Positions 2,686-53,378 of a stretch of 64,000 nucleotides of DNA are shown here, piece after piece. The position numbers and the translations under genes are program-made. How positions within the stretch are numbered: the stretch's first letter is position 1; every line of letters begins with the position of its first letter. Source of the DNA: an uncultured Planctomycetia bacterium (lineage in GTDB: Bacteria > Omnitrophota > Gorgyraeia > Duberdicusellales > 4484-171); contig CAZHYN010000006.1 of NCBI GenBank assembly GCA_964536865.1, positions 6,674 through 70,673 of the forward strand, given 5' to 3'. The notes under the pieces are model-generated. The model had not been told where the DNA came from. It made no database searches and worked only from the letters and a program-made list of their open reading frames with translations.

Positions 2686-4698
2686 ATGGGAAGTTTAGAG
2701 AAGATAAAAAAAGAGATAGAGAAATTAAGAGAGGAAATTCGCTATCACGATTGGCGTTACTATGTTTTGGCAGATCCAGAGGTCTCTGATAAAGCTTACG
2801 ATGATTTAGTAAGGAGACTTAAAGAGTTAGAGGAAAAATATCCTCAGTTTATTACACCTGATTCTCCTACCCAGAGAGTTTCGGGAGCAGTATTAGAAGG
2901 TTTTCCTACGGTAAAGCACAGAGTGAAAATGTTATCTTTAGATAATACTTACTCCATAGAAGAGCTAAAAGAATGGGAGGAAAAGATAGAGAGAATTCTA
3001 AAGAGAAAAGTTAAATTAGATTACACTGTAGAGCTGAAGATCGATGGAGTAAGTTGTGCTTTAGTTTATAAGGATGGAAATCTTACTCTTGCAGCTACTC
3101 GAGGTGATGGAGAAGTGGGAGAAGACATCACCCCTAACGTACGCACAATAAAGTCTGTGCCTTTGAGGTTAATAGGTAAAGATTTTCCCAAGGTTATAGA
3201 AGTGAGGGGAGAAATATACATGAATAAAGTTGATTTTAAGAAGATAAATGAAGAAAGGTTAAAAAGAGGAGAGCCCCCCTTTGCTAACCCCCGGAATGCC
3301 ACCAGCGGCTCTTTAAAACTTTTGGATCCTAAGGAAGTTGGGAAGCGAAATCTTAAATGTTTCATTCACTCCTTTGGCTGGTCCCAGAATTACGCTTTCA
3401 ACAGTCAATATGAATTTTTAGAAAAAGTGAAAGAATGGGGATTGCGCACCAATCCTTATAATAAGTACTGTAGAAATCTGGATGAGGTTATAGCTTACTG
3501 TAACCAATGGCAGGAGAAGAGAGATAGTTTAGATTACGAAGTAGATGGAGTGGTAGTGAAAGTCAACTCATTTTCTCTCCAGAGGGGATTGGGGCAAACA
3601 CTTAAATCTCCTCGTTGGGCAGTAGCTTATAAATTTCCTGCTCATCAAGCTACTACTACTGTGAAAGATATTATTTTTAGTGTAGGTAGAACAGGGATTA
3701 TAACTCCTGTAGCAATACTTAATCCTGTGGAGTGTGGAGGTGTGACTATTTCCCGTTCTACTCTTCATAACTTTGATGAGATAAAAAGACTGGATGTAAG
3801 AGTGAAGGATACCGTATTAGTAGAAAGAGCAGGAGAGGTTATTCCCAAGATTGTTAAGGTGATTACTTCTAAAAGAAAAGGGAAAGAGAGAAAAGTTAAA
3901 GTTCCCCAGAGATGTCCTGTATGTGGAGGGGTAATTTCTAAAGAAAAAGAAGAGGAAGTTTATTTATACTGTATTAATCCTGATTGTCCAGCAAAACTTA
4001 AACAATCGCTCCTTCATTTTGCTTCACGAGGAGCCATGGATATAGAGGGGATGGGTGATAGTGTAGTGGAGGAGTTAGTTGAAAGAGGAATGGTGAAAAG
4101 TCTGGTAGATATATATAAACTCAAAAAAGAAGATTTCCTTGAGCTTCCTCTATTTGCGGAAAAGAAGGCATTCAATCTCTATCAAGCTATACAGAGGAGC
4201 AAGAACCATCCTTTAGCCAGATTCTTATATGGTTTAGGAATAAGACATGTGGGAGAGAAGGCAGCTATGGTTTTGGCTCAAAAATTTAGAGAGATTGATA
4301 AGTTTTTTACTTTAGGTAAGGCGGATTTAGAAAGCATTCCCGAGGTAGGTCCGGTTATGGCAGAGAGTGTGATTAAGTTCTTCTCTCAGTCCAAAGTGAA
4401 GAAGATGATTAAGGAGTTTAAAGAATTAGGTTTGAACTTAAAGGAGGAAGCAAAAGTTAAGAAAGATATTTTAAAAGGGAAAACAATTGTTTTTACTGGG
4501 GAGTTAAAGAGTTTTACTAGAACAGAAGCTCAGAGATTAGTAGAGGAGTTAGGAGGCAAGTGGTCTTCTTCAGTGAGTAGAAATACAGACTACTTAGTAG
4601 TTGGTGAAAATCCTGGTTCTAAGTATGAGAAAGGAAAGAAATTAGGAATCAGGATGATTAACGAGGAGGAGTTTAAGCGACTTATAAAGGAAAAATAA
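2686..4698 (+). CDS. ligA: NAD-dependent DNA ligase
   Basis: Has the adenylation KxDG motif (ELKIDGVS), OB fold, zinc finger (CPVCGG...C..C), HhH repeats and a C-terminal BRCT domain. The start at ATG 2686 follows an AGGAGG RBS; the ORF-track start at 2626 overlaps the previous gene. Confidence 0.9.
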   Translation: MGSLEKIKKEIEKLREEIRYHDWRYYVLADPEVSDKAYDDLVRRLKELEEKYPQFITPDSPTQRVSGAVLEGFPTVKHRVKMLSLDNTYSIEELKEWEEKIERILKRKVKLDYTVELKIDGVSCALVYKDGNLTLAATRGDGEVGEDITPNVRTIKSVPLRLIGKDFPKVIEVRGEIYMNKVDFKKINEERLKRGEPPFANPRNATSGSLKLLDPKEVGKRNLKCFIHSFGWSQNYAFNSQYEFLEKVKEWGLRTNPYNKYCRNLDEVIAYCNQWQEKRDSLDYEVDGVVVKVNSFSLQRGLGQTLKSPRWAVAYKFPAHQATTTVKDIIFSVGRTGIITPVAILNPVECGGVTISRSTLHNFDEIKRLDVRVKDTVLVERAGEVIPKIVKVITSKRKGKERKVKVPQRCPVCGGVISKEKEEEVYLYCINPDCPAKLKQSLLHFASRGAMDIEGMGDSVVEELVERGMVKSLVDIYKLKKEDFLELPLFAEKKAFNLYQAIQRSKNHPLARFLYGLGIRHVGEKAAMVLAQKFREIDKFFTLGKADLESIPEVGPVMAESVIKFFSQSKVKKMIKEFKELGLNLKEEAKVKKDILKGKTIVFTGELKSFTRTEAQRLVEELGGKWSSSVSRNTDYLVVGENPGSKYEKGKKLGIRMINEEEFKRLIKEK

Positions 4699-5285: not shown

Positions 5286-5905
5286 GAATAAAGAGTTTTA
5301 CTTTGGGAGATTTCTCTACTAACGCTTACTTAGTAATAAATCCTCAGACTAAAAATTGCATCCTTATAGATGCTCCCCAAGGAATAGAGAAAGTCAATAG
5401 TTTTTTAAAAAAGAATGGCTATAATCTTCTCTTTGTGATTCTTACTCACGGTCACATTGACCATATAATGGGTTTAGCCAAATTAAAGTTCCCCTTCTAC
5501 ATTCATCACGAAGATAGAGAATTTTTGACCAATCCTGAGTTGAATCTTTCTTCTTTTCTTTCGTCTCCTTTCAGTTTGAAAAAAATACCTCATCTCATAA
5601 AGGACAACGATAAACTACTTTTAGATACTTATCAATTTCATCTTCTTCACACACCTGGGCATACTCCTGGGTCTATCTGTGTTTTTGTAGATAATTTTCT
5701 TTTTAGTGGAGATACACTTTTTTTTGGTTCTATAGGGAGAGTTGATCTTCCTTATGCATCTTATGATTTAATATTAACTTCAATTAAAAATAGAATTCTC
5801 CCTTTAGGATATAAAGTTAAAGTATTTCCTGGCCATGGGCCCTCTACGGATGTAGAGAGGGAGGCTAAAAATAATCCCTTTTTGAAGGAATGCAGATATA
5901 CTTAG
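5255..5905 (+). CDS. MBL-fold metallo-hydrolase
   Basis: Carries the THGHIDH metallo-beta-lactamase motif and a downstream His/Asp pattern. Confidence 0.7.
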   Translation: MESSFSMDGLRIKSFTLGDFSTNAYLVINPQTKNCILIDAPQGIEKVNSFLKKNGYNLLFVILTHGHIDHIMGLAKLKFPFYIHHEDREFLTNPELNLSSFLSSPFSLKKIPHLIKDNDKLLLDTYQFHLLHTPGHTPGSICVFVDNFLFSGDTLFFGSIGRVDLPYASYDLILTSIKNRILPLGYKVKVFPGHGPSTDVEREAKNNPFLKECRYT

Positions 5906-6777
5906 AAGCTTTTCTTGATTATCTGAGAGTAGAGAAAGGACTTTCTCCTAATTCTATTCTCTCTTATCAGAGAGATTTAGCTAAGTATCTTAATTTTTTA
6001 AAAGCGCAAAAGATTGAAGATATTAAAAAAGTAACCAAAGAAGACATCCTTGATTTTTTATTTTCTCTTAGAGGAAAAGCTTGTTCTTCTACAGTTGCTA
6101 GGAATTTATCTTCCATAAAAAATTTTCATCGTTTCCTTCTTCGTGAGAAGATCATAAACAACGATCCCTCACATTTAATTGAAACTCCAAAGCTCGAAAA
6201 GAAAATTCCTCAAGTATTAAGTTTTGATGAGGTAGAAAGAATTATAAAGACTCCTAATCTTAAGAAAGTTCAAGGGGTAAGAGACAGAGCTATTTTAGAG
6301 CTTATGTATGCTAGTGGATTAAGAGTTTCGGAAGTAGCTTCACTGAAAGTGAACGATGTAAATAGGGAAGTGGGATTTTTGAGATGTCGAGGAAAGTCAT
6401 CTAAAGAGAGAATCGTTCCTCTAGGGAGTAAGGCTTTAAAGTTTTTAGAGAAGTATCTTAAAGAAGCACGTCCCAAGTTAGCTAAAGGAGGAGGTTCATC
6501 CTACCTTTTTTTAGCTCAAGGAGGCAGACCATTAACTCGCCAGACCATATGGAAGATGATTAAGGAGCTGGTGAAAAAGGCTGGGATTAAGAAGGGAGTA
6601 AGTCCTCATACTTTGAGACATTCCTTTGCTACTCATCTTATAGAAAGAGGAGCAGACCTAAGGAGCGTACAAGAAATGTTAGGGCACGCTTCTATTACTA
6701 CCACTCAAATATATACCCATATAAATAAGTTGAGATTGAAGGAGATTCACTTTCGTTTCCATCCTCGAGCAAAGTAG
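5890..6777 (+). CDS. Site-specific tyrosine recombinase, XerC/XerD family
   Basis: The C-terminal catalytic region (RHSFATHLIERGADLRSVQEMLGHASITTTQIYTH) includes the catalytic Tyr. Confidence 0.8.
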   Translation: MQIYLEAFLDYLRVEKGLSPNSILSYQRDLAKYLNFLKAQKIEDIKKVTKEDILDFLFSLRGKACSSTVARNLSSIKNFHRFLLREKIINNDPSHLIETPKLEKKIPQVLSFDEVERIIKTPNLKKVQGVRDRAILELMYASGLRVSEVASLKVNDVNREVGFLRCRGKSSKERIVPLGSKALKFLEKYLKEARPKLAKGGGSSYLFLAQGGRPLTRQTIWKMIKELVKKAGIKKGVSPHTLRHSFATHLIERGADLRSVQEMLGHASITTTQIYTHINKLRLKEIHFRFHPRAK

Positions 6778-6789
6778 AAAGGATTTTTT

Positions 6790-8052
6790 ATGGGAATTAC
6801 ATTATTGAAGAAGTTGCCTCTTTCCGTAAGGAAGTACTTACGTATGTTTTCTTCTTTGGCAGAGGCTTTAAATTATAAGATTTTCTTAGTAGGAGGTATA
6901 GTTAGAGATTTATTTTTGGCGAGAGAAAATCTTGATTTAGATATTGTAGTAGAAGGAGACGCTATAGAGTTTGTTAAGGCCTTATCTAAAAAGTTAAACG
7001 CAGAGTTTGTAAAGCATCACTCCTTCGGTACAGCCACTCTTTATCTTAATAATTTAAAGATAGATTTTGCAACCGCACGGAAAGAGTTTTATCCCTGCTG
7101 GGGAGCTCTTCCAAAAGTGGTAGCTTCTACTATAAGAGAGGACCTTTTTCGAAGAGACTTCACTATAAATGCTATGGCTATGAGTCTTAATAGAGAAAGT
7201 TGGGGTGATATTTTGGATTTCTATGGAGGGGTTAACGATCTTGATAAGGGTTTAATAAGAGTTCTTCATCCTGAAAGTTTCTTACAAGACCCTACCAGAA
7301 TTTTCCGTGCTATAAGATTTGAGCAGAGGTTTTCTTTTCGTATGGAGCCCTATACTCTTTCCCTTCTTAAGGAAGCTATCAGATTAGGTGCTCTGAGATG
7401 GATAGATGAACATCGTATAAGAGATGAACTGATTCTTATTTTAAAAGAACCTACCCCTTATCGCTACATAAGAAGAATTAATCAGTTGGTGGGGTTTTCT
7501 TTTATAAATGAAAAGTTGACTCTGAAGAAGAGTGATTTTTTGTTTCTCATGCGGATCCAAAAGTCCTTACATACCTATAAGAAAAAATTTAAAAAGTATA
7601 GAGAGCTCCAGGAGTGGATTATTTATCTTGCAGGAATTGTGTATAAGCTAAAGGAGGATGCGCTCTTTCAGTTTTTCTTACATTTTGGGTTAAGGAAAGG
7701 AGAAAGAAAGATTATTTTATCTATCAAAGACAATTTTTATAAAGTTCGTGGTTTAAAGAGAGTGAAATCTAAAGTAGGCATTTTTGAAATTTTAAACCCA
7801 TTAAGTTTTGAGGCAGTAGTATTTTTTTATGCCTATTTTAGAGATAAGATTATAAGGAAGAAGATATTCATCTTTTTAGAAAAGCTCGCTTATATTCGTT
7901 TAAAGCTAAAAGGAGAAGATTTAAAAAGAGCAGGATACAGAGATAAGACCAATTATGCAAAAATTTTCAAGAGGCTCCTTCATAAGAAAATTGAGAAAAA
8001 TATTTATACTAAGAGCCAAGAACTTAAGGAGTTAAAAAGATTATTAACATAA
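6790..8052 (+). CDS. cca: CCA-adding enzyme / poly(A) polymerase family nucleotidyltransferase
   Basis: Head domain GGIVRDLFL...DLDIVVEG, typical of the Pol-beta-type tRNA nucleotidyltransferase. Confidence 0.7.
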   Translation: MGITLLKKLPLSVRKYLRMFSSLAEALNYKIFLVGGIVRDLFLARENLDLDIVVEGDAIEFVKALSKKLNAEFVKHHSFGTATLYLNNLKIDFATARKEFYPCWGALPKVVASTIREDLFRRDFTINAMAMSLNRESWGDILDFYGGVNDLDKGLIRVLHPESFLQDPTRIFRAIRFEQRFSFRMEPYTLSLLKEAIRLGALRWIDEHRIRDELILILKEPTPYRYIRRINQLVGFSFINEKLTLKKSDFLFLMRIQKSLHTYKKKFKKYRELQEWIIYLAGIVYKLKEDALFQFFLHFGLRKGERKIILSIKDNFYKVRGLKRVKSKVGIFEILNPLSFEAVVFFYAYFRDKIIRKKIFIFLEKLAYIRLKLKGEDLKRAGYRDKTNYAKIFKRLLHKKIEKNIYTKSQELKELKRLLT

Positions 8053-8723: not shown

Positions 8724-9660
8724 GCTTTTGAGGGAGAATAAAAGATTTTTAATTACTGCCCATATGAATCTGGAGGGAGATGCCTTAGGTTCAGAGTTAG
8801 CTACCTATCTTCTTCTTAGAAAGATGAATAAGCAGGCTATTATCTACAACCACGATTCCACCCCCCAGGCTTATAGTTTTCTTCCTCATGTTAAAGTTAT
8901 AAAAAATGAACTGGATTCTTCCTATGCGTTTGATGTAGCTTTGGTTTTAGATTGTTCTGATTCTTTTCGTACAGGGAAAGTAAAAGATTATTTAAGTAGG
9001 GCAAAGATTATTGTTAATATCGATCATCATATAAGTAATACTTTTTTTGGAGACATAAATTGGGTGGACCCCAAGGCAAGCTCTGCCTCGGAGATGATTT
9101 ACCGATTATGTAGGGAGTTAAAAGTGATGAATAGAAAAATAGCCCTGTGCATCTATACGGGGATATTTACAGATACAGGTAGTTTCACCTATAGTAATGT
9201 TTCTTCACGGGTTCATAGGATCACTGCTGAATTATTTAGATACAAGATCTTACCCGATAAAATTTACGATTCCTTACATAGTTTTTGTCAGCTTAACGAT
9301 ATAAAGTTTATTGGCAAAATATTGTCTTCTATTAAAGCAGATCCTAGTGGAAAGATAATTTGGTCATTAATAAGGTACTGGCCAAAGAAGGATTACGATC
9401 TTACAGAAGTGATTTTCTCAATAATGCGGTTCTTAAGAGATGCCGAGGTTTTTTTATTGTTTAAAAAGTTAGGGAAAAATAAGGTTCGTGTAAACTTTCG
9501 CTCACGTTCTAAAGTAGATGTGAATAAAGTTGCTAAGTTTTTTGGAGGAGGAGGGCATAAACGAGCTAGTGGCACCACTATGTCTGGAAATCTCTCCTCG
9601 GTAGAAAAGAAGGTTATAACTTTCATTAGAAGATATACCAATGATAAGAAAAGGAAATAG
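8704..9660 (+). CDS. nrnA: DHH/DHHA1 phosphoesterase (NrnA-like oligoribonuclease/pAp phosphatase)
   Basis: DHH motif (NIDHH) and DHHA1 motif (GGGGHKRASG). Confidence 0.75.
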   Translation: MIKKIIELLRENKRFLITAHMNLEGDALGSELATYLLLRKMNKQAIIYNHDSTPQAYSFLPHVKVIKNELDSSYAFDVALVLDCSDSFRTGKVKDYLSRAKIIVNIDHHISNTFFGDINWVDPKASSASEMIYRLCRELKVMNRKIALCIYTGIFTDTGSFTYSNVSSRVHRITAELFRYKILPDKIYDSLHSFCQLNDIKFIGKILSSIKADPSGKIIWSLIRYWPKKDYDLTEVIFSIMRFLRDAEVFLLFKKLGKNKVRVNFRSRSKVDVNKVAKFFGGGGHKRASGTTMSGNLSSVEKKVITFIRRYTNDKKRK

Positions 9661-34140: not shown

Positions 34141-34168
34141 TTGCCTAAATATTTTTCTATGTTATAAT
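34141..34168 (+). promoter_or_regulatory. Sigma70-like promoter upstream of the tRNA-Phe locus (TTGCCT-16-TATAAT)
   Basis: TTGCCT at 34141-34146 and TATAAT at 34163-34168, about 20 nt upstream of the first tRNA-Phe 5'-half copy. Confidence 0.45.
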
Positions 34169-34188
34169 TTTCTAACAATTTAGTAAGT

Positions 34189-34222
34189 GCCGAGGTAGCT
34201 CAGGAGGTAGAGCGAGGGACTG
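34189..34222 (+). pseudogene. Orphan 5' half of tRNA-Phe (positions 1-34, identity stops inside the anticodon loop), followed by a three-hairpin structured segment
   Basis: 34187-34222 is identical to the 5' 36 nt (including the 2 upstream nt) of the complete tRNA-Phe gene 135 bp downstream. It diverges sharply after G34. 34226-34275 forms nested hairpins: gtgat[ctccgac-gtta-gtcggag][ttgccc-gaa-gggcaa]atcac. Confidence 0.7.
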
Positions 34223-34323
34223 TATGTGATCTCCGACGTTAGTCGGAGTTGCCCGAAGGGCAAAATCACATCCAGTTATTACTTTTGCTTAATCGAAAAA
34301 CTTTTGATTAAAAATAAAACTGT

Positions 34324-34396
34324 GCCGAGGTAGCTCAGGAGGTAGAGCGAGGGACTGAAAATCCCTGCGTCGGGGGTTCGACTCCCTCCCTCGGCA
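34324..34396 (+). tRNA. tRNA-Phe (anticodon GAA), CCA not encoded
   Basis: Cloverleaf read by hand: acceptor gccgagg/cctcggc, D-arm gctc/gagc, anticodon stem aggga/tccct with loop ctGAAaa, T-arm ggggg-ttcgact-ccctc, discriminator A. Confidence 0.9.
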
Positions 34397-34505
34397 CTTT
34401 TATCTCTAATTTATAAGTTTATTCTCCTCTCTGTGCGTCTTTAAGTGTTCCTAGGCAATGTCGGATCCAACATATAAATACTTTGGTTTCACCAAAGGTT
34501 GGATA

Positions 34506-34523
34506 CGACTCCCTCCCTCGGCA
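34506..34523 (+). repeat. 18-nt perfect copy of the tRNA-Phe 3' end (T-loop C56 to discriminator), preceded by a hairpin
   Basis: cgactccctccctcggca is identical to 34379-34396. The hairpin tccaac...ctttggt-ttc-accaaag...gttgga abuts it upstream. Confidence 0.85.
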
Positions 34524-34630
34524 TAGTTTATCCTCACATTCATTAACTTCTTTTTTAAGCTGGAAGTTAGCTCTGAGACGAAAGTATCGTCGGAACAAAT
34601 AAGGGAAAATCGCCTTTGGCGAATTTGTTA

Positions 34631-34648
34631 CGACTCCCTCCCTCGGCA
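34631..34648 (+). repeat. Second 18-nt perfect copy of the tRNA-Phe 3' end, preceded by hairpins
   Basis: cgactccctccctcggca(c) is identical to the tRNA 3' end. The upstream spacer carries hairpins gacga-aagta-tcgtc and tcgcc-tttg-ggcga. It lies 125 bp from the previous copy. Confidence 0.85.
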
Positions 34649-34725
34649 CTTTTTGTTTTTAAAGTCAGAATTGGAGATATTTTATTTCTGAAGTTACTTC
34701 CTACTTTATTATCTTATTAGTGTTC

Positions 34726-35138: not shown

Positions 35139-38100
35139 TCAAAATGGTAAACCAAATCCTCCATGGAGACGTGAGCGAGTAGTATCTTTATCTGCTCCTA
35201 TCTTAAATCCATAGTCTAATTTTACAAATCCCCATTTTGTTCTAAATCGCAATCCTATCCCACCTCCGCTTTTAAATTTATTCAAAGAAAAATCATTCGC
35301 TTCCTCTATTAGAAATCCTGTATCCAAAAATGCAGCTCCATAGAGTAGATTCTTATACAAAGGAAATCTAAATTCTATATTGATTACACCAAAAAAATTC
35401 CCTCCTAACGGAAGAAGATTGTTATCTAGCATTCCTACTTTTCTTCCTTTGTACCCTCTTATAGTAGAAGAACCTCCTATATAAAACTTTTCAAAAAAAG
35501 GAACTTCATTAGTTCCCCCAAAAGCATCTAAATATCCCCATTTAGTTCTGAGTACAAACACTCTATCTTTTTTAAGATTATAATAACGGCGGTAATCTAA
35601 TTGAATTCTATAGAAATCAAAATCTGAACCAATAATTTGAGAAGAGATGTCTTGTTGAATTTTAAAGTAGGTTCCACTGGTAGGATAAATTTTATCATTA
35701 GTAGTTTTTCTTAGAAATTTTATGAATAAGAAATCTACTTTAGGTTTTCCATAATAACTTTTAATTTTGACAGGTGCAGAAGGGTCTAAATCATAAATAC
35801 TATACTTATAGGAGGAAAATCCTAAATAGATTTTACTATTTTGTGTAAAATATGTTCCCAGATAGAGATCGTACATAAGTTTCCCTTTCAAATTATATCT
35901 TGAATCTGATTCCCATCGTCCCTTAAATGAGAGGCCACCAAAGAATATACTGTTCAATATTTCATCCTTTTCAAAGCCTAATTTTAACTTCTTTTCATAA
36001 GAGGAGTATTTACCTCCAAAAATACCCTTAAAGTTCTTATGTTCATACTTTAGGTGTGCTTTTTCTCCAGTAGGTGCGGATATTTTTAGTTCTCCTATTC
36101 TTTGGATTTTCTTTTCCTCTTTTAAAGTAAGATTAAGAAATTCTAAAATTTTATTTTCGACGTATCCAAAAGATAAGTAAGAACTGAAGTGCCCCTCCGG
36201 AAGCCAAATAATGCGGGGATATTCCAGAGAACGCCATAGACTCACGCTACACTCAGAGGGCATGTCCTTGTCAAATAGAGCATTTATCATAAGGATAGTT
36301 TTGTTTTTGGCTTTAAAAGAAAAATTTAAAGGATCGATAATATTTACCTCTTCTAGGATTTTCTGTATCTGTTTTTCTTTAAGTTTTAATCTATATTTTT
36401 TAAGTAATCTACTCTTTAGTATAAACTTTTCGAAATCTGCACCCCCAAGGAGAAATACACCTCTGTTTATCGTTGCATCTTTGCCTAGAAGAGTTCCTGC
36501 AATGATAGCTCCTAGACTTAATCCTCCCAGAGCTATCCTATCATTATTTATAAAAGATTGTCTCTTCAGCCACTCTAAGGTATTTCCCCCTTCAATAGTT
36601 AGTTCTTTTATTAGATCTGTATAAATTTTTACTCTTTTTTGAAGGGATATATTCCTTAGTCTATCTTTATGTTGATGGTAAAATTTTTTTGCACCTAGTT
36701 CTAAAGTTACAAAAGCAAAATTATTCTTCGTTAAGAATTTTCCTAAATTTTCTTCAATGAATTTACTTACCCCTCCAGAGTGAGGGAGGAAAAATAAACA
36801 AGGATATTTTCCCTTCTTATTAGAAAGGAAGAGATAGATAAAAATATATTTGTTAGGTAATTTTAAATCTAATTTGCTTTCATAAACAAAAGTTAATTTT
36901 CTATAGTATTTTTTATTTTCTTCTTTTTCTAAAATAGGAAATATTTCTCTTTCATTTTCTTTCAAAAATCGATAAGGATTTTTAGTAGTTTTTGGAGGCA
37001 ATTTTTTGCCAAATTCTTTTTCTAGGGAAAAATCAATTTCTTTTTCAGAGAGGAGGAAATACAGTCTTAGTTCATCAGGAACGAACAAGACACTTTGTAA
37101 AGTTCCCCCTCCTTTCCCTATAGGTGGTGTTCTTAATAAATTAAATGTACTTTTTAAATCAAACTTTTTATTGCCTCTCGCAGTTTTCTTGAACTGAACC
37201 AATCGCTTATACGAACTAGTTTCTTCTAATTTTGTCTTTGGATACACCGCTTTCATAGTTTGGAATAGTCTTTCTGTGAGATAGTGATTTACAGCAATAA
37301 GATACTTATCTTTTGGAAAAATAATCTCGTACATTCTTGCTGAGACTTCTGCGACAAATGCACTGTTCGTTTTCCCATCAGTTATAGTTATGGTATATCC
37401 CCTCATTCTTTTTGATTTAGATATTTCTCTTAGAGCTTTCCATAGATCAGGAGAATATTGGATAATTTTCCTTAAAAGGAACATAATCGGGATTCCAGTT
37501 TTTGATAAATCTTCAGTTCCCACTCCAGTTTCTCCTAAAGATATTCTATTTGCATTCATACCAGTTAACACTCCACACATTCCTGGCCAGCCAATGTGCA
37601 CAAAAGGAAAGCCATTGTCGGGTTCTACGAAAAAGATTACCCTATTTTTAAATAGATTTTTTCGTGGAGCAAAACCTAGATTTCTTCCATGAAAAAGTTT
37701 GTTACTTTGAGTTAATTCAGGCAAAAGTACGAAATTAGTACATGTTTTTTTAATTTTTCTTAAGAGAGGCATAACATCTAGAAAGGTATGCATCAGAAGA
37801 ATTTTTTGATAAGATAGACCGCTTCCTTTAGCCACTCCTCTCATTTCTTCCCTAAATTCAGAAGGGATATATTTTTCTAATTGTCTCGATTTAAGTTTAA
37901 AGTACTGCAAGATAATCCACCGTTTTAATTTTGAATGAGAAGAACTTTGGAGAAGCTCTTTTAAGAAGTAATTATTATAAAGTTGACGAATTTGGTTTCT
38001 TAAAAGATATCCGTGCTGAAATCCTCTTATAAATGGAGAACCTTTAAGATGAACTACAAGAATTCCATTTGTATTTTTTAAAGACGCTCCTTTTAGATAG

Positions 38101-38177
38101 TTTACTTTAGGTGAAGTGGAAGAAGGAAGGATAAAGAAAATAGTAATAGTAAAAATCGAAACAATAAATTTCTTCAC
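35139..38177 (-). CDS. Secreted multidomain protein: signal peptide - peptidase C45 (acyl-CoA:6-APA acyltransferase-like Ntn hydrolase) - alpha/beta hydrolase - POTRA/Omp85 (D15 surface antigen) beta-barrel
   Basis: N-terminal signal (MKKFIVSIFTITIFFILPSS). The C45 region has a putative nucleophile Cys (KTCTNF) and a GRNLGF motif. The alpha/beta hydrolase region has GLSLG (GxSxG) plus downstream Asp/His. The C-terminal roughly 300 aa is rich in alternating aromatic beta strands and ends in a terminal F, matching a BamA/TpsB-type barrel. Confidence 0.6.
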   Translation of the reverse strand: MKKFIVSIFTITIFFILPSSTSPKVNYLKGASLKNTNGILVVHLKGSPFIRGFQHGYLLRNQIRQLYNNYFLKELLQSSSHSKLKRWIILQYFKLKSRQLEKYIPSEFREEMRGVAKGSGLSYQKILLMHTFLDVMPLLRKIKKTCTNFVLLPELTQSNKLFHGRNLGFAPRKNLFKNRVIFFVEPDNGFPFVHIGWPGMCGVLTGMNANRISLGETGVGTEDLSKTGIPIMFLLRKIIQYSPDLWKALREISKSKRMRGYTITITDGKTNSAFVAEVSARMYEIIFPKDKYLIAVNHYLTERLFQTMKAVYPKTKLEETSSYKRLVQFKKTARGNKKFDLKSTFNLLRTPPIGKGGGTLQSVLFVPDELRLYFLLSEKEIDFSLEKEFGKKLPPKTTKNPYRFLKENEREIFPILEKEENKKYYRKLTFVYESKLDLKLPNKYIFIYLFLSNKKGKYPCLFFLPHSGGVSKFIEENLGKFLTKNNFAFVTLELGAKKFYHQHKDRLRNISLQKRVKIYTDLIKELTIEGGNTLEWLKRQSFINNDRIALGGLSLGAIIAGTLLGKDATINRGVFLLGGADFEKFILKSRLLKKYRLKLKEKQIQKILEEVNIIDPLNFSFKAKNKTILMINALFDKDMPSECSVSLWRSLEYPRIIWLPEGHFSSYLSFGYVENKILEFLNLTLKEEKKIQRIGELKISAPTGEKAHLKYEHKNFKGIFGGKYSSYEKKLKLGFEKDEILNSIFFGGLSFKGRWESDSRYNLKGKLMYDLYLGTYFTQNSKIYLGFSSYKYSIYDLDPSAPVKIKSYYGKPKVDFLFIKFLRKTTNDKIYPTSGTYFKIQQDISSQIIGSDFDFYRIQLDYRRYYNLKKDRVFVLRTKWGYLDAFGGTNEVPFFEKFYIGGSSTIRGYKGRKVGMLDNNLLPLGGNFFGVINIEFRFPLYKNLLYGAAFLDTGFLIEEANDFSLNKFKSGGGIGLRFRTKWGFVKLDYGFKIGADKDTTRSRLHGGFGLPF

Positions 38178-43954: not shown

Positions 43955-44026
43955 GCCGGGATAGCTCAGTGGTAGAGCAGGTGCTTCGTAAGCATCAGGT
44001 CGAGAGTTCGAATCTCTCTCCCGGCT
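43955..44026 (+). tRNA. tRNA-Thr (anticodon CGU)
   Basis: Cloverleaf read by hand: acceptor gccggga/tcccggc, D-arm gctc/gagc, anticodon stem ggtgc/gcatc with loop ttCGTaa, T-arm gagag-ttcgaat-ctctc. A TTGCTA-16-TATAAT promoter lies about 65 nt upstream. Confidence 0.85.
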
Positions 44027-44052
44027 TATAAATAGAGATACCAGATAACTCA

Positions 44053-44076
44053 GAGGTTCAAATCCTCTCTCCGGCT
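44053..44076 (+). repeat. Degenerate copy of the tRNA-Thr T-arm + 3' acceptor strand, 27 nt downstream of the gene
   Basis: gaggttcaaatcctctctccggct versus the tRNA's gagagttcgaatctctctcccggct. It runs into the RBS of the downstream MFS gene. Confidence 0.5.
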
Positions 44077-53049: not shown

Positions 53050-53126
<77 letters not shown>

Positions 53127-53243
53127 CCCGCAACCATTTCTATTAATCTTAATCTATGTTATGTAATCTTTATCTCGCTTACTATGCAAAAGCAATTTTG
53201 GATGCAATAAATAAAAGACTCCGCCTCTGGCGGAGATTGCATA

Positions 53244-53264
53244 CAAATCGGCCCCCCGCAACCA
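53244..53264 (+). repeat. 21-nt perfect copy of the tRNA-fMet 3' end (T-loop C56 through CCA), preceded by a 7-bp hairpin
   Basis: caaatcggccccccgcaacca is identical to 53106-53126. ctccgcc-tct-ggcggag (53221-53237) abuts it upstream. It lies 138 bp from the original. Confidence 0.85.
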
Positions 53265-53361
53265 TCTAAATTTCTACCCGAGCTTTAAGAGATACTACTT
53301 TTATATTATAGGCGAGCGTAATTTTGATGTGATAAATATGTGAACGTTTCAACTTAGGGAA

Positions 53362-53378
53362 GGTTGCACACAAATCAC
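53362..53378 (+). repeat. Degenerate third copy of the junction unit (ttgcaCacaaatc), lacking the tRNA-derived part
   Basis: Shares ttgca[t/c]acaaatc with the junction at 53236-53249. It lies 128 bp downstream of copy 2. Confidence 0.3.

Follow-up and report, generated by a model that had tools for sequence, protein, structure and literature searches.

Candidate miniature insertion units with a guide-like hairpin at two tRNA genes of an Omnitrophota chromosome

What gave rise to the partial tRNA copies that surround the tRNA-Phe gene in this stretch of Omnitrophota DNA? The window, by which we mean the whole stretch of 64,000 nucleotides (nt) that was analysed, is core chromosome of a diderm bacterium, with the dcw cluster, rnf, kdsD/kdsC and a gene for an Omp85-domain protein (35139-38177), and its enolase is 93% identical to that of Candidatus Omnitrophota metagenome-assembled genomes. 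Two of its tRNA genes, tRNA-Phe and the initiator tRNA-fMet, are accompanied by short units, each with an intact tRNA gene on one side and a displaced copy of a tRNA end on the other, and every partial copy adjoins one common hairpin fold that takes in the first four nucleotides of the copy. We give about an even chance to the proposal that the tRNA-Phe locus holds three copies, and the tRNA-fMet locus one or two, of miniature non-coding insertion elements, non-autonomous and site-specific, whose targets are loops of tRNA genes and which restore the gene into which they insert.

Anatomy of the units at tRNA-Phe and tRNA-fMet

The tRNA-Phe locus is laid out as follows.

34141-34168, plus strand: sigma-70-like promoter, TTGCCT-16-TATAAT with an upstream TG, 10/12; a consensus match only
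34187-34222, plus strand: displaced 5' fragment of tRNA-Phe, identical to 34322-34357
34223-34323, minus strand: inverted unit, 101 nt of non-tRNA DNA; in minus-strand order an AT-rich part, then the hairpin
34219-34276, minus strand: hairpin of the inverted unit, ACTG-G-ATGTGAT-(two GC hairpins)-ATCACAT-A-CAGT, from the architecture scan
34324-34396, plus strand: intact tRNA-Phe(GAA) without encoded CCA (ARAGORN; Rfam tRNA, 67.7 bits)
34397-34523, plus strand: unit Phe-1, made of a 63-nt AT-rich part, the hairpin, an A and the 18-nt tRNA end copy (34506-34523)
34460-34509, plus strand: Phe-1 hairpin, GTCG-G-ATCCAAC-ATATAAATA-(CTTTGGT ttc ACCAAAG)-GTTGGAT-A-CGAC; z -6.5; 11/11 Watson-Crick pairs
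34524-34648, plus strand: unit Phe-2, made of an AT-rich part, the hairpin, an A and the 18-nt tRNA end copy (34631-34648)
34589-34634, plus strand: Phe-2 hairpin, GTCG-G-AACAAAT-AAGGGAAAA-(TCGCC ttt GGCGA)-ATTTGTT-A-CGAC; DNA fold z -4.1

The 18-mer CGACTCCCTCCCTCGGCA, which runs from C56 to A73 of tRNA-Phe, lies at 34379 and recurs at 34506 and 34631 with 0 mismatches and spacings of 127 and 125 nt; these are three copies where none is expected, and none was found in 100 shuffles. Upstream, the orphan 5' fragment comprises 36 nt (2 nt of leader plus tRNA positions 1-34), lies 135 nt ahead of the gene's own copy and loses identity after G34, in the anticodon loop. The site at 34141-34168 is probably the original promoter of tRNA-Phe.

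At tRNA-fMet the same arrangement is found on one side of the gene.

53060-53136, plus strand: intact initiator-type tRNA-Met(CAT), CCA encoded (ARAGORN; Rfam)
53137-53264, plus strand: unit Met-1, made of an AT-rich part, the hairpin and a 21-nt tRNA end copy including CCA (53244-53264)
53197-53247, plus strand: Met-1 hairpin, TTTG-G-ATGCAAT-AAATAAAAGA-(CTCCGCC tct GGCGGAG)-ATTGCAT-A-CAAA; z -4.9
53265-53376 (end approximate), plus strand: second Met unit, decayed, TTTG-A-TGTGAT...GTTGCAC-A-CAAATC (direct reading and alignments)

Met-1 occupies the 128 nt after tRNA-fMet, and its 21-nt copy again starts at C56. The decayed second unit still lies at 127 nt from the copy before it, but it retains just 6 nt of the tRNA end and its stem is incompletely paired.

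What do the junctions have in common? The fold reads, 5' to 3', as a tetranucleotide (N4'), G, a 7-nt stem strand, an A-rich stretch of 9-10 nt, a GC hairpin of 5-7 bp, the returning 7-nt strand, A, and a second tetranucleotide (N4); N4 is the first four tRNA-derived bases, and N4' is complementary to it. The inner GC hairpin stacks directly on the returning strand, and a G·A mismatch separates the 4-bp foot from the 7-bp stem. A script that searched the whole window on both strands for N4'-G-[7 bp]-bulge-[hairpin]-[7 bp]-A-N4 matched all four intact tRNA-fragment junctions (two at Phe, one at fMet and the inverted one on the minus strand); its sole extra match was an AT-only site inside a gene, and 40 shuffles gave 0 matches. 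DNA folding returns the same design, with z between -3.7 and -8. In all four window units 11/11 stem pairs are Watson-Crick despite differing stems (ATCCAAC, AACAAAT, ATGCAAT, ATGTGAT). Similarly, the foot changes with the loop: N4'/N4 is GTCG/CGAC at the Phe T-loop, TTTG/CAAA at the fMet T-loop and ACTG/CAGT at the antisense Phe anticodon loop, where CAGT is the complement of tRNA-Phe positions 31-34. Complementarity holds in 5/5 intact units and for three different tetranucleotides, with a chance expectation of about 1/256 for each independent one.

These results recast several features of a preliminary description of the locus. That description had reported the promoter, the orphan 5' half that ends in the anticodon loop 135 nt before the gene, and the perfect 18-nt recurrences, all of which were reproduced. 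Its stem-loop before each 3' copy is also present, but is neither generic nor merely adjacent, as its foot pairs with the first four tRNA-derived bases. The three-hairpin structure that it placed after the 5' half does contain hairpins there, which resolve into a minus-strand unit with two inner hairpins (DNA fold -21.8 kcal/mol, z -7.95) followed by a separate AT hairpin. The upstream half, taken at first for a misfit, belongs to a unit of the same kind that is turned round and sits at the anticodon loop, because the same architecture was found on the minus strand. The fillers, said to share only ctttgg, also have the stem consensus in common, as well as GTCGGA and, directly 5' of GTCGGA, a G-Y-A-A-T that is loosely conserved. 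Finally, the small antisense open reading frame (ORF) at 34419-34649, thought to be an artefact, plausibly is one: it spans the repeats and has no Pfam match.

The units contain about 101-115 nt of DNA of their own and have periods of 125-137 nt. Apart from the shared motifs, the fillers within the Phe array are unrelated, and neither the comparison of B1 with B2 nor that of B2 with B3 was significant. A resemblance of the Phe-1 left part to native flanking DNA (common AGTGTTCCTA) was dropped, as 128/2000 shuffles did as well.

The breakpoints fall between positions 55 and 56 in the T-loop on the sense strand and between 34 and 35 in the anticodon loop on the antisense strand, at which the one inverted unit is aimed. 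From there the duplicated segment always extends to the end of the gene, over 18 nt for Phe, 21 nt for fMet and 36 nt on the 5' side, and the presence of CCA follows the gene: the Phe copies lack it, as their gene does, and the fMet copy has it, as its gene does. The length of the duplicate is set by the tRNA and reaches the exact gene end, which therefore points to copying at the DNA level that preserves the gene. Two other origins for the duplications were considered and rejected. Retro-copying primed from mature tRNA, by the 18-nt logic of a primer-binding site, is ruled out by the CCA pattern, and the boundary lies at C56, not at 58/59. Likewise, a target-site duplication of fixed stagger, such as a DDE transposase or a casposase makes, is ruled out by lengths of 18, 21 and 36 nt that always run to the gene end.

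A third tRNA gene, tRNA-Thr(CGT) at 43955, has no hairpin unit. From 24 nt past it, at 44027-44072, lies a diverged T-arm and acceptor 3' strand, AGAGGTTCAAATCCTCTCTCCGGCT, with compensatory stem changes, which may be what is left of a second tRNA-Thr gene or of a classical attachment (att) site.

Occurrence in related Omnitrophota

Do relatives carry the unit? At the eno-divIC-tRNA-fMet locus, the relative with 93% enolase identity (contig L128) has the same Met unit; contig L129 ends at 5686, ahead of the hairpin. In the sister contig L127 the Met unit is also present, but identity to L128 and to the window stops exactly after A-CAAA, the foot of the hairpin; this breakpoint right after N4 is a single case. 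A second lineage, at 75% identity (L136, L138, L140), has a 136-nt unit at tRNA-fMet with a different stem and the same design, and its 21-nt copy matches that lineage's own tRNA T-stem. In L136 the displaced copy is followed by a native trailer to which the left part of the unit is homologous (33/43 identical, 0/2000 shuffles); this fits an element that took up a tRNA end together with its trailer at a locus of this kind. In three other lineages (L132/L133, L141/L142, L143) tRNA-fMet is plain, with no unit. At the Phe locus, L123, whose Omp85-domain ortholog is 65% identical, shows one decayed unit beside a decayed tRNA-Phe and then a strong terminator; it has no 5' fragment, and ARAGORN no longer calls its tRNA-Phe.

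Presence among the relatives is therefore patchy, the number of units varies, units decay alongside loss of their partner, and the copy, where there is one, always matches the local tRNA. The preliminary description had looked to such a comparison to tell a dynamic site from an old, inert duplication, and the differences in presence and unit number do not suit the latter.

Several further observations were made on these and other contigs. L127 (4407-4720) and L128 (5763-6330) encode an identical enolase protein but differ from the Met unit onwards, as far as the TetR gene downstream: in L127 A-CAAA is directly followed by a small zinc-ribbon-like ORF, and in L128 by the rest of a full 21-nt copy, with a decayed second unit and GC-rich hairpins. 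The syntenic region of L123 (9560-9990, minus strand, and 9384-9460) contains an apparent frame-broken transposase remnant upstream of tRNA-Phe, in which, to judge by eye, the D-stem and the G53-C61 pair are broken. Two Logan contigs from independent assemblies (L134, L135; SRR7517633/4) agree with the window at 100% identity, and each of them begins at 34645, within the last 18-mer copy. A repeat of 23 nt is shared at this break, which seems too short alone to explain it, and the break may reflect strain or population heterogeneity at the edge of the array.

A scan of a genome collection with the flanking Omp85-domain protein returned only an unrelated Hyphomicrobium locus. The 18-mer, when used to scan metagenomes, met mostly tRNA-Leu, Cys and Met genes of unrelated organisms, and the sole close relative (L015) has a plain tRNA-Phe. 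Orphan copies of the 18-mer stand in unrelated contigs (L007 at 3640-3891 and 7230-7470, L076 at 2210-2461, L111 at about 7210-7300), among them a module made of a tRNA-Leu 3' half and, 170-190 nt on, a second copy from C56 to the end. L007 has this tRNA-Leu module twice, around about 3.4 kb and next to GTGTGAC iteron-like repeats, and in L111 an insert of 27 nt separates T55 from C56 in a tRNA-Leu 3' half; the hairpin design of these three contigs is unlike that of the window units. Five other contigs with 18-mer matches (L006, L023, L042, L078, L119) share a conserved ...GGGGGTCGAGGGTGCGAAGCC..CGGAGGCG-CGACTCCCTCCCTCGGCACCA with a tRNA-acceptor-like end that ARAGORN does not call; the sequence ending in CGACTCCCTCCCTCGGCACCA may be the 3' end of a tmRNA or of another tRNA-like RNA.

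Mechanism and rival explanations

How might such a unit move? We propose that an insertion element of this kind would carry, or create on insertion, a replacement for the part of the tRNA that it displaces, as tRNA-integrating islands do, and that repeated insertion at the regenerated site would build a tandem array. The folded hairpin would be the active end, recognised by a recombinase acting in trans. Pairing of N4' with N4 would set both the cleavage site and the target tetranucleotide in single-stranded DNA, where tRNA-gene loops would be exposed; the element would be cut 3' of N4 and inserted 3' of the same tetranucleotide in such a loop, and the only survivors would be elements with the remaining tRNA end at their left end. 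The L127 breakpoint and the L136 trailer homology fit this model. If the units are insertion elements, we lean slightly towards a mechanism like that of HUH enzymes, by analogy with the guide logic of the IS200/IS605 Y1 transposases; a tyrosine integrase or Xer-type enzyme is possible but clearly less probable, and some other mechanism is unlikely. More tentatively still, the units may be minimal mobile cassettes of a class not described before, each with a single hairpin whose foot carries a 4-nt guide that programs the target; they would home to tRNA-gene loops in single-stranded DNA and capture the tRNA end and trailer so that each insertion repairs the gene, with at least the tRNA-proximal copy having since come under selection at the level of the host, for example as an insulator or terminator. 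Of the three readings offered in the preliminary description, "miniature att-flanked cassettes" comes closest to the evidence.

A number of points weigh against insertion elements. The Pfam scan, which covered most window ORFs of at least 150 residues outside the dcw cluster and a few shorter ones by tRNA-Phe, found no transposase or integrase in or next to any unit and no Y1 HUH transposase (TnpA or RAYT, the tyrosine transposase associated with repetitive extragenic palindromic (REP) sequences). The only gene of the integrase family in the 64 kb, 28 kb away, is Xer-like and in a housekeeping context; this sole tyrosine-recombinase gene lies at 5890-6777 on the plus strand and encodes 295 residues with PF00589 and a SAM-like N domain. 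IS200/IS605 elements have a left-end hairpin, and the AT-rich left parts of the units showed no conserved one; the tRNA arm itself might take that role. Mobility is deduced here from distribution alone, because no autonomous copy, no empty-site allele from the same species and no circular junction was observed. The sample, moreover, is small: five intact and two decayed units from one window and a few metagenomic contigs. The remaining two points, the conservation of one hairpin and the resemblance of the inner hairpins to terminators, speak at the same time for the first of the rival explanations.

Could the units serve the host instead? They might be structured elements with a host function: a terminator that keeps antisense or convergent transcription out of the tRNA gene, an element for the processing or stability of the tRNA precursor, or the terminator of an antisense small RNA complementary to the tRNA 3' end. 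This is the main rival, though we consider it unlikely, and it could hold even for units that arose by insertion. A comparison of the window with L128 gives a divergence of 9-10% for enolase and intergenic DNA and of 4/55 for the AT-rich left part of the Met unit, whereas the proximal Met hairpin has 0/51 substitutions, a result with a chance of about 0.006 at the background rate; to judge from this comparison, a function at the level of the host would account for such conservation more easily than a selfish single-copy relic would. In both lineages decay is under way in the distal Met unit, which has lost its tRNA copy. In three units, the inner GC hairpin and its A/T-run also make a predicted intrinsic terminator on the other strand.

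34481-34497, minus strand: predicted terminator, inner hairpin, strand opposite the tRNA
34610-34622, minus strand: predicted terminator, inner hairpin, strand opposite the tRNA
53219-53235, minus strand: predicted terminator, inner hairpin, strand opposite the tRNA

That of Phe-2 (34610-34622) faces the convergent dagK-Omp85 operon; it lies about 100 nt past the stop codon of dagK and may, from its position, be the dagK terminator. The inverted unit, between the promoter and tRNA-Phe, lacks the T-run and has another GC hairpin in its place, which is what one would expect if termination at that point were lethal. A host function keeps its weight because the Met hairpin is unchanged and the inner hairpins resemble terminators everywhere except in the inverted unit. 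A terminator, however, has no need of an outer stem of 12 bp or of a foot paired with a tRNA-derived tetranucleotide; the genes downstream of tRNA-fMet are co-directional and leave no convergent transcription to stop; three related lineages manage without the unit; and Rfam, at both gathering and permissive thresholds, returned tRNA only. A conserved minus-strand small-RNA gene was rejected, since the minus-strand promoter predicted in the window is not conserved in L128.

Less likely again, the units may be decayed tyrosine-integrase islands or prophages that integrated at the anticodon loop and the T-loop and of which only the att-proximal ends are left. The preliminary description had linked the locus to att sites, and part of this stands: the boundaries lie in both classical loop sublocations, the duplication is of the att type, and a regenerated gene stands next to a displaced fragment. 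Islands are known to form tandem arrays and, in rare cases, to leave 5' fragments (PMC4383910), the Ms6 attB lies in a T-loop (PMC1762012), and the same 18-mer occurs as an orphan fragment in the unrelated metagenomic contigs described above. A classical tyrosine-integrase core, however, does not predict the covariation of N4' with N4, and no integrase was found in or next to the units. Nor would random deletion yield five independent units of nearly equal size (125-137 nt per period) with one hairpin design. No integrase pseudogene or other island debris is present, what lies to the left of the identity block does not repeat the right core half-site in inverted form, and the DNA of the L136 unit is homologous to the local trailer, not foreign. 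The phage or plasmid homologs that the preliminary description had thought to look for did not appear in BLAST searches of two Phe units, and exact scans of viral sequences returned two tRNA-Leu genes for the 18-mer and nothing for three hairpin/tRNA junctions.

Least likely of all is local tandem duplication, by slippage or template switching at the hairpin, with gene conversion of the tRNA part and without mobility, which would suit the near-constant periods, the resemblance of the L136 left part to the native trailer and the derived changes that the L123 tRNA end shares with its copy, but leaves unexplained the two tRNA genes, the inverted unit at another loop, the foot re-matched to each loop, the unrelated fillers within one array and the patchy occurrence among relatives.

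Comparison with known systems

When an island integrates at a tRNA gene, the gene is made whole again and a fragment of its 3' end or, more rarely, its 5' end is displaced; crossover takes place in the anticodon loop or the T-loop, and tandem arrays of islands are on record (PMC4383910). The units at tRNA-Phe and tRNA-fMet resemble such tRNA and tmRNA islands in that a loop is split, a copy of the displaced end restores the gene, the fragment marks the other end, arrays are tandem and 5' fragments are rare. The principle by which the Islander approach recognises islands reportedly goes back to Williams in 2002. By its tests, an intact tRNA with co-oriented cognate fragments is present (two 3' and one 5' for Phe, one 3' for fMet), the identity boundaries at 34/35 and 55/56 lie at two of the crossover sublocations, which are the anticodon loop, the T-loop and the T/acceptor junction, and there is no integrase inside, the units of 125-137 nt holding no ORF of a known family. 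They differ from islands in having about 101-115 nt of their own DNA instead of kilobases, in lacking integrase and cargo, and in combining a conserved hairpin, whose foot pairs with the first 4 nt of the fragment, with the absence of an inverted-repeat core at the crossover.

Cis-mobilizable elements (CIMEs), familiar from the work on ICESt1/3 of Streptococcus thermophilus, are non-autonomous, att-flanked remnants of integrative elements. The units are like them in being att-flanked, in having no recombination genes of their own and, if they are insertion elements, in being mobilisable in trans and accreting in tandem at the 3' end of a tRNA or other gene; CIMEs, in contrast, are kilobase-sized deletion derivatives with island genes and no guide-like hairpin. 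CIMEs are reviewed together with integrative mobilizable elements in PMC5704250.

With the attC sites of integrons and the folded single-stranded att sites of the CTX type, the units would have in common a folded hairpin as recombination site, conserved mismatches and a foot sequence exchanged with the target. Unlike those systems they have no intI, attI or cassette ORF, and their 12-bp stem is too short for a dif-like Xer site. An integron cassette array was rejected, as 1/5 stems (Phe-1, ATCCAAC/GTTGGAT) fits RYYYAAC/GTTRRRY, there is no intI and the fillers are non-coding. Two further systems were discarded. The repeat-spacer arrangement suggested in the preliminary description, and with it an array of clustered regularly interspaced short palindromic repeats (CRISPR), fails because the repeat is the local tRNA end, differs by locus and varies in length with the tRNA (18, 21, 36 nt), and one unit is inverted; Rfam gave nothing, and no cas genes appeared in the Pfam scan of most ORFs of at least 150 residues outside the dcw cluster. 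Similarly, an archaeal split or intron-bearing tRNA with a bulge-helix-bulge does not agree with a geometry of 4 bp, a 1x1 G·A and 7 bp, a diderm bacterial host and the presence of an intact gene.

Finally, the ends of IS200/IS605 elements have a guide of four nucleotides just 5' of the hairpin foot, and this guide interacts both with the tetranucleotide that terminates the end and with that of the target (PMC6006769); this type of specificity is reprogrammable, as the retargeting of IS608 through its guide has demonstrated (PMC5934647). The units likewise have a subterminal hairpin and, 5' of its foot, a tetranucleotide matched to the terminal and target ones, are small and non-coding, and with their basal stem, bulge and second stem recall the "long" REP hairpins; as in the IS200/IS605 and REP-RAYT systems, 4 nt could set the choice of target and change it when they change. 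They differ from these systems in having one recognisable hairpin end, in plain Watson-Crick pairing that directly flanks the stem (with 1-nt spacers and a G·A mismatch), in coming with a duplication of a tRNA end, in their low copy number in 64 kb, at tRNA genes only, and in that the scanned ORFs include no Y1 gene.

Covariation of a 4-nt guide with its target is directly testable and, given the precedent of IS608 (PMC5934647), of practical interest; the units also offer a handle on mobile DNA in the Omnitrophota, an almost uncultured phylum, and counsel caution in annotation, as finders of tRNA-fragment islands and assemblers will misread such arrays. The units are best read as a new miniature variant of the insertion elements that target tRNA genes, equipped with a guide-like hairpin. 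If mobile, they would be the smallest known elements to use the split-and-restore strategy at tRNA genes, and would unite tRNA regeneration of the att type with targeting by a hairpin and guide tetranucleotide, hitherto found in separate systems.

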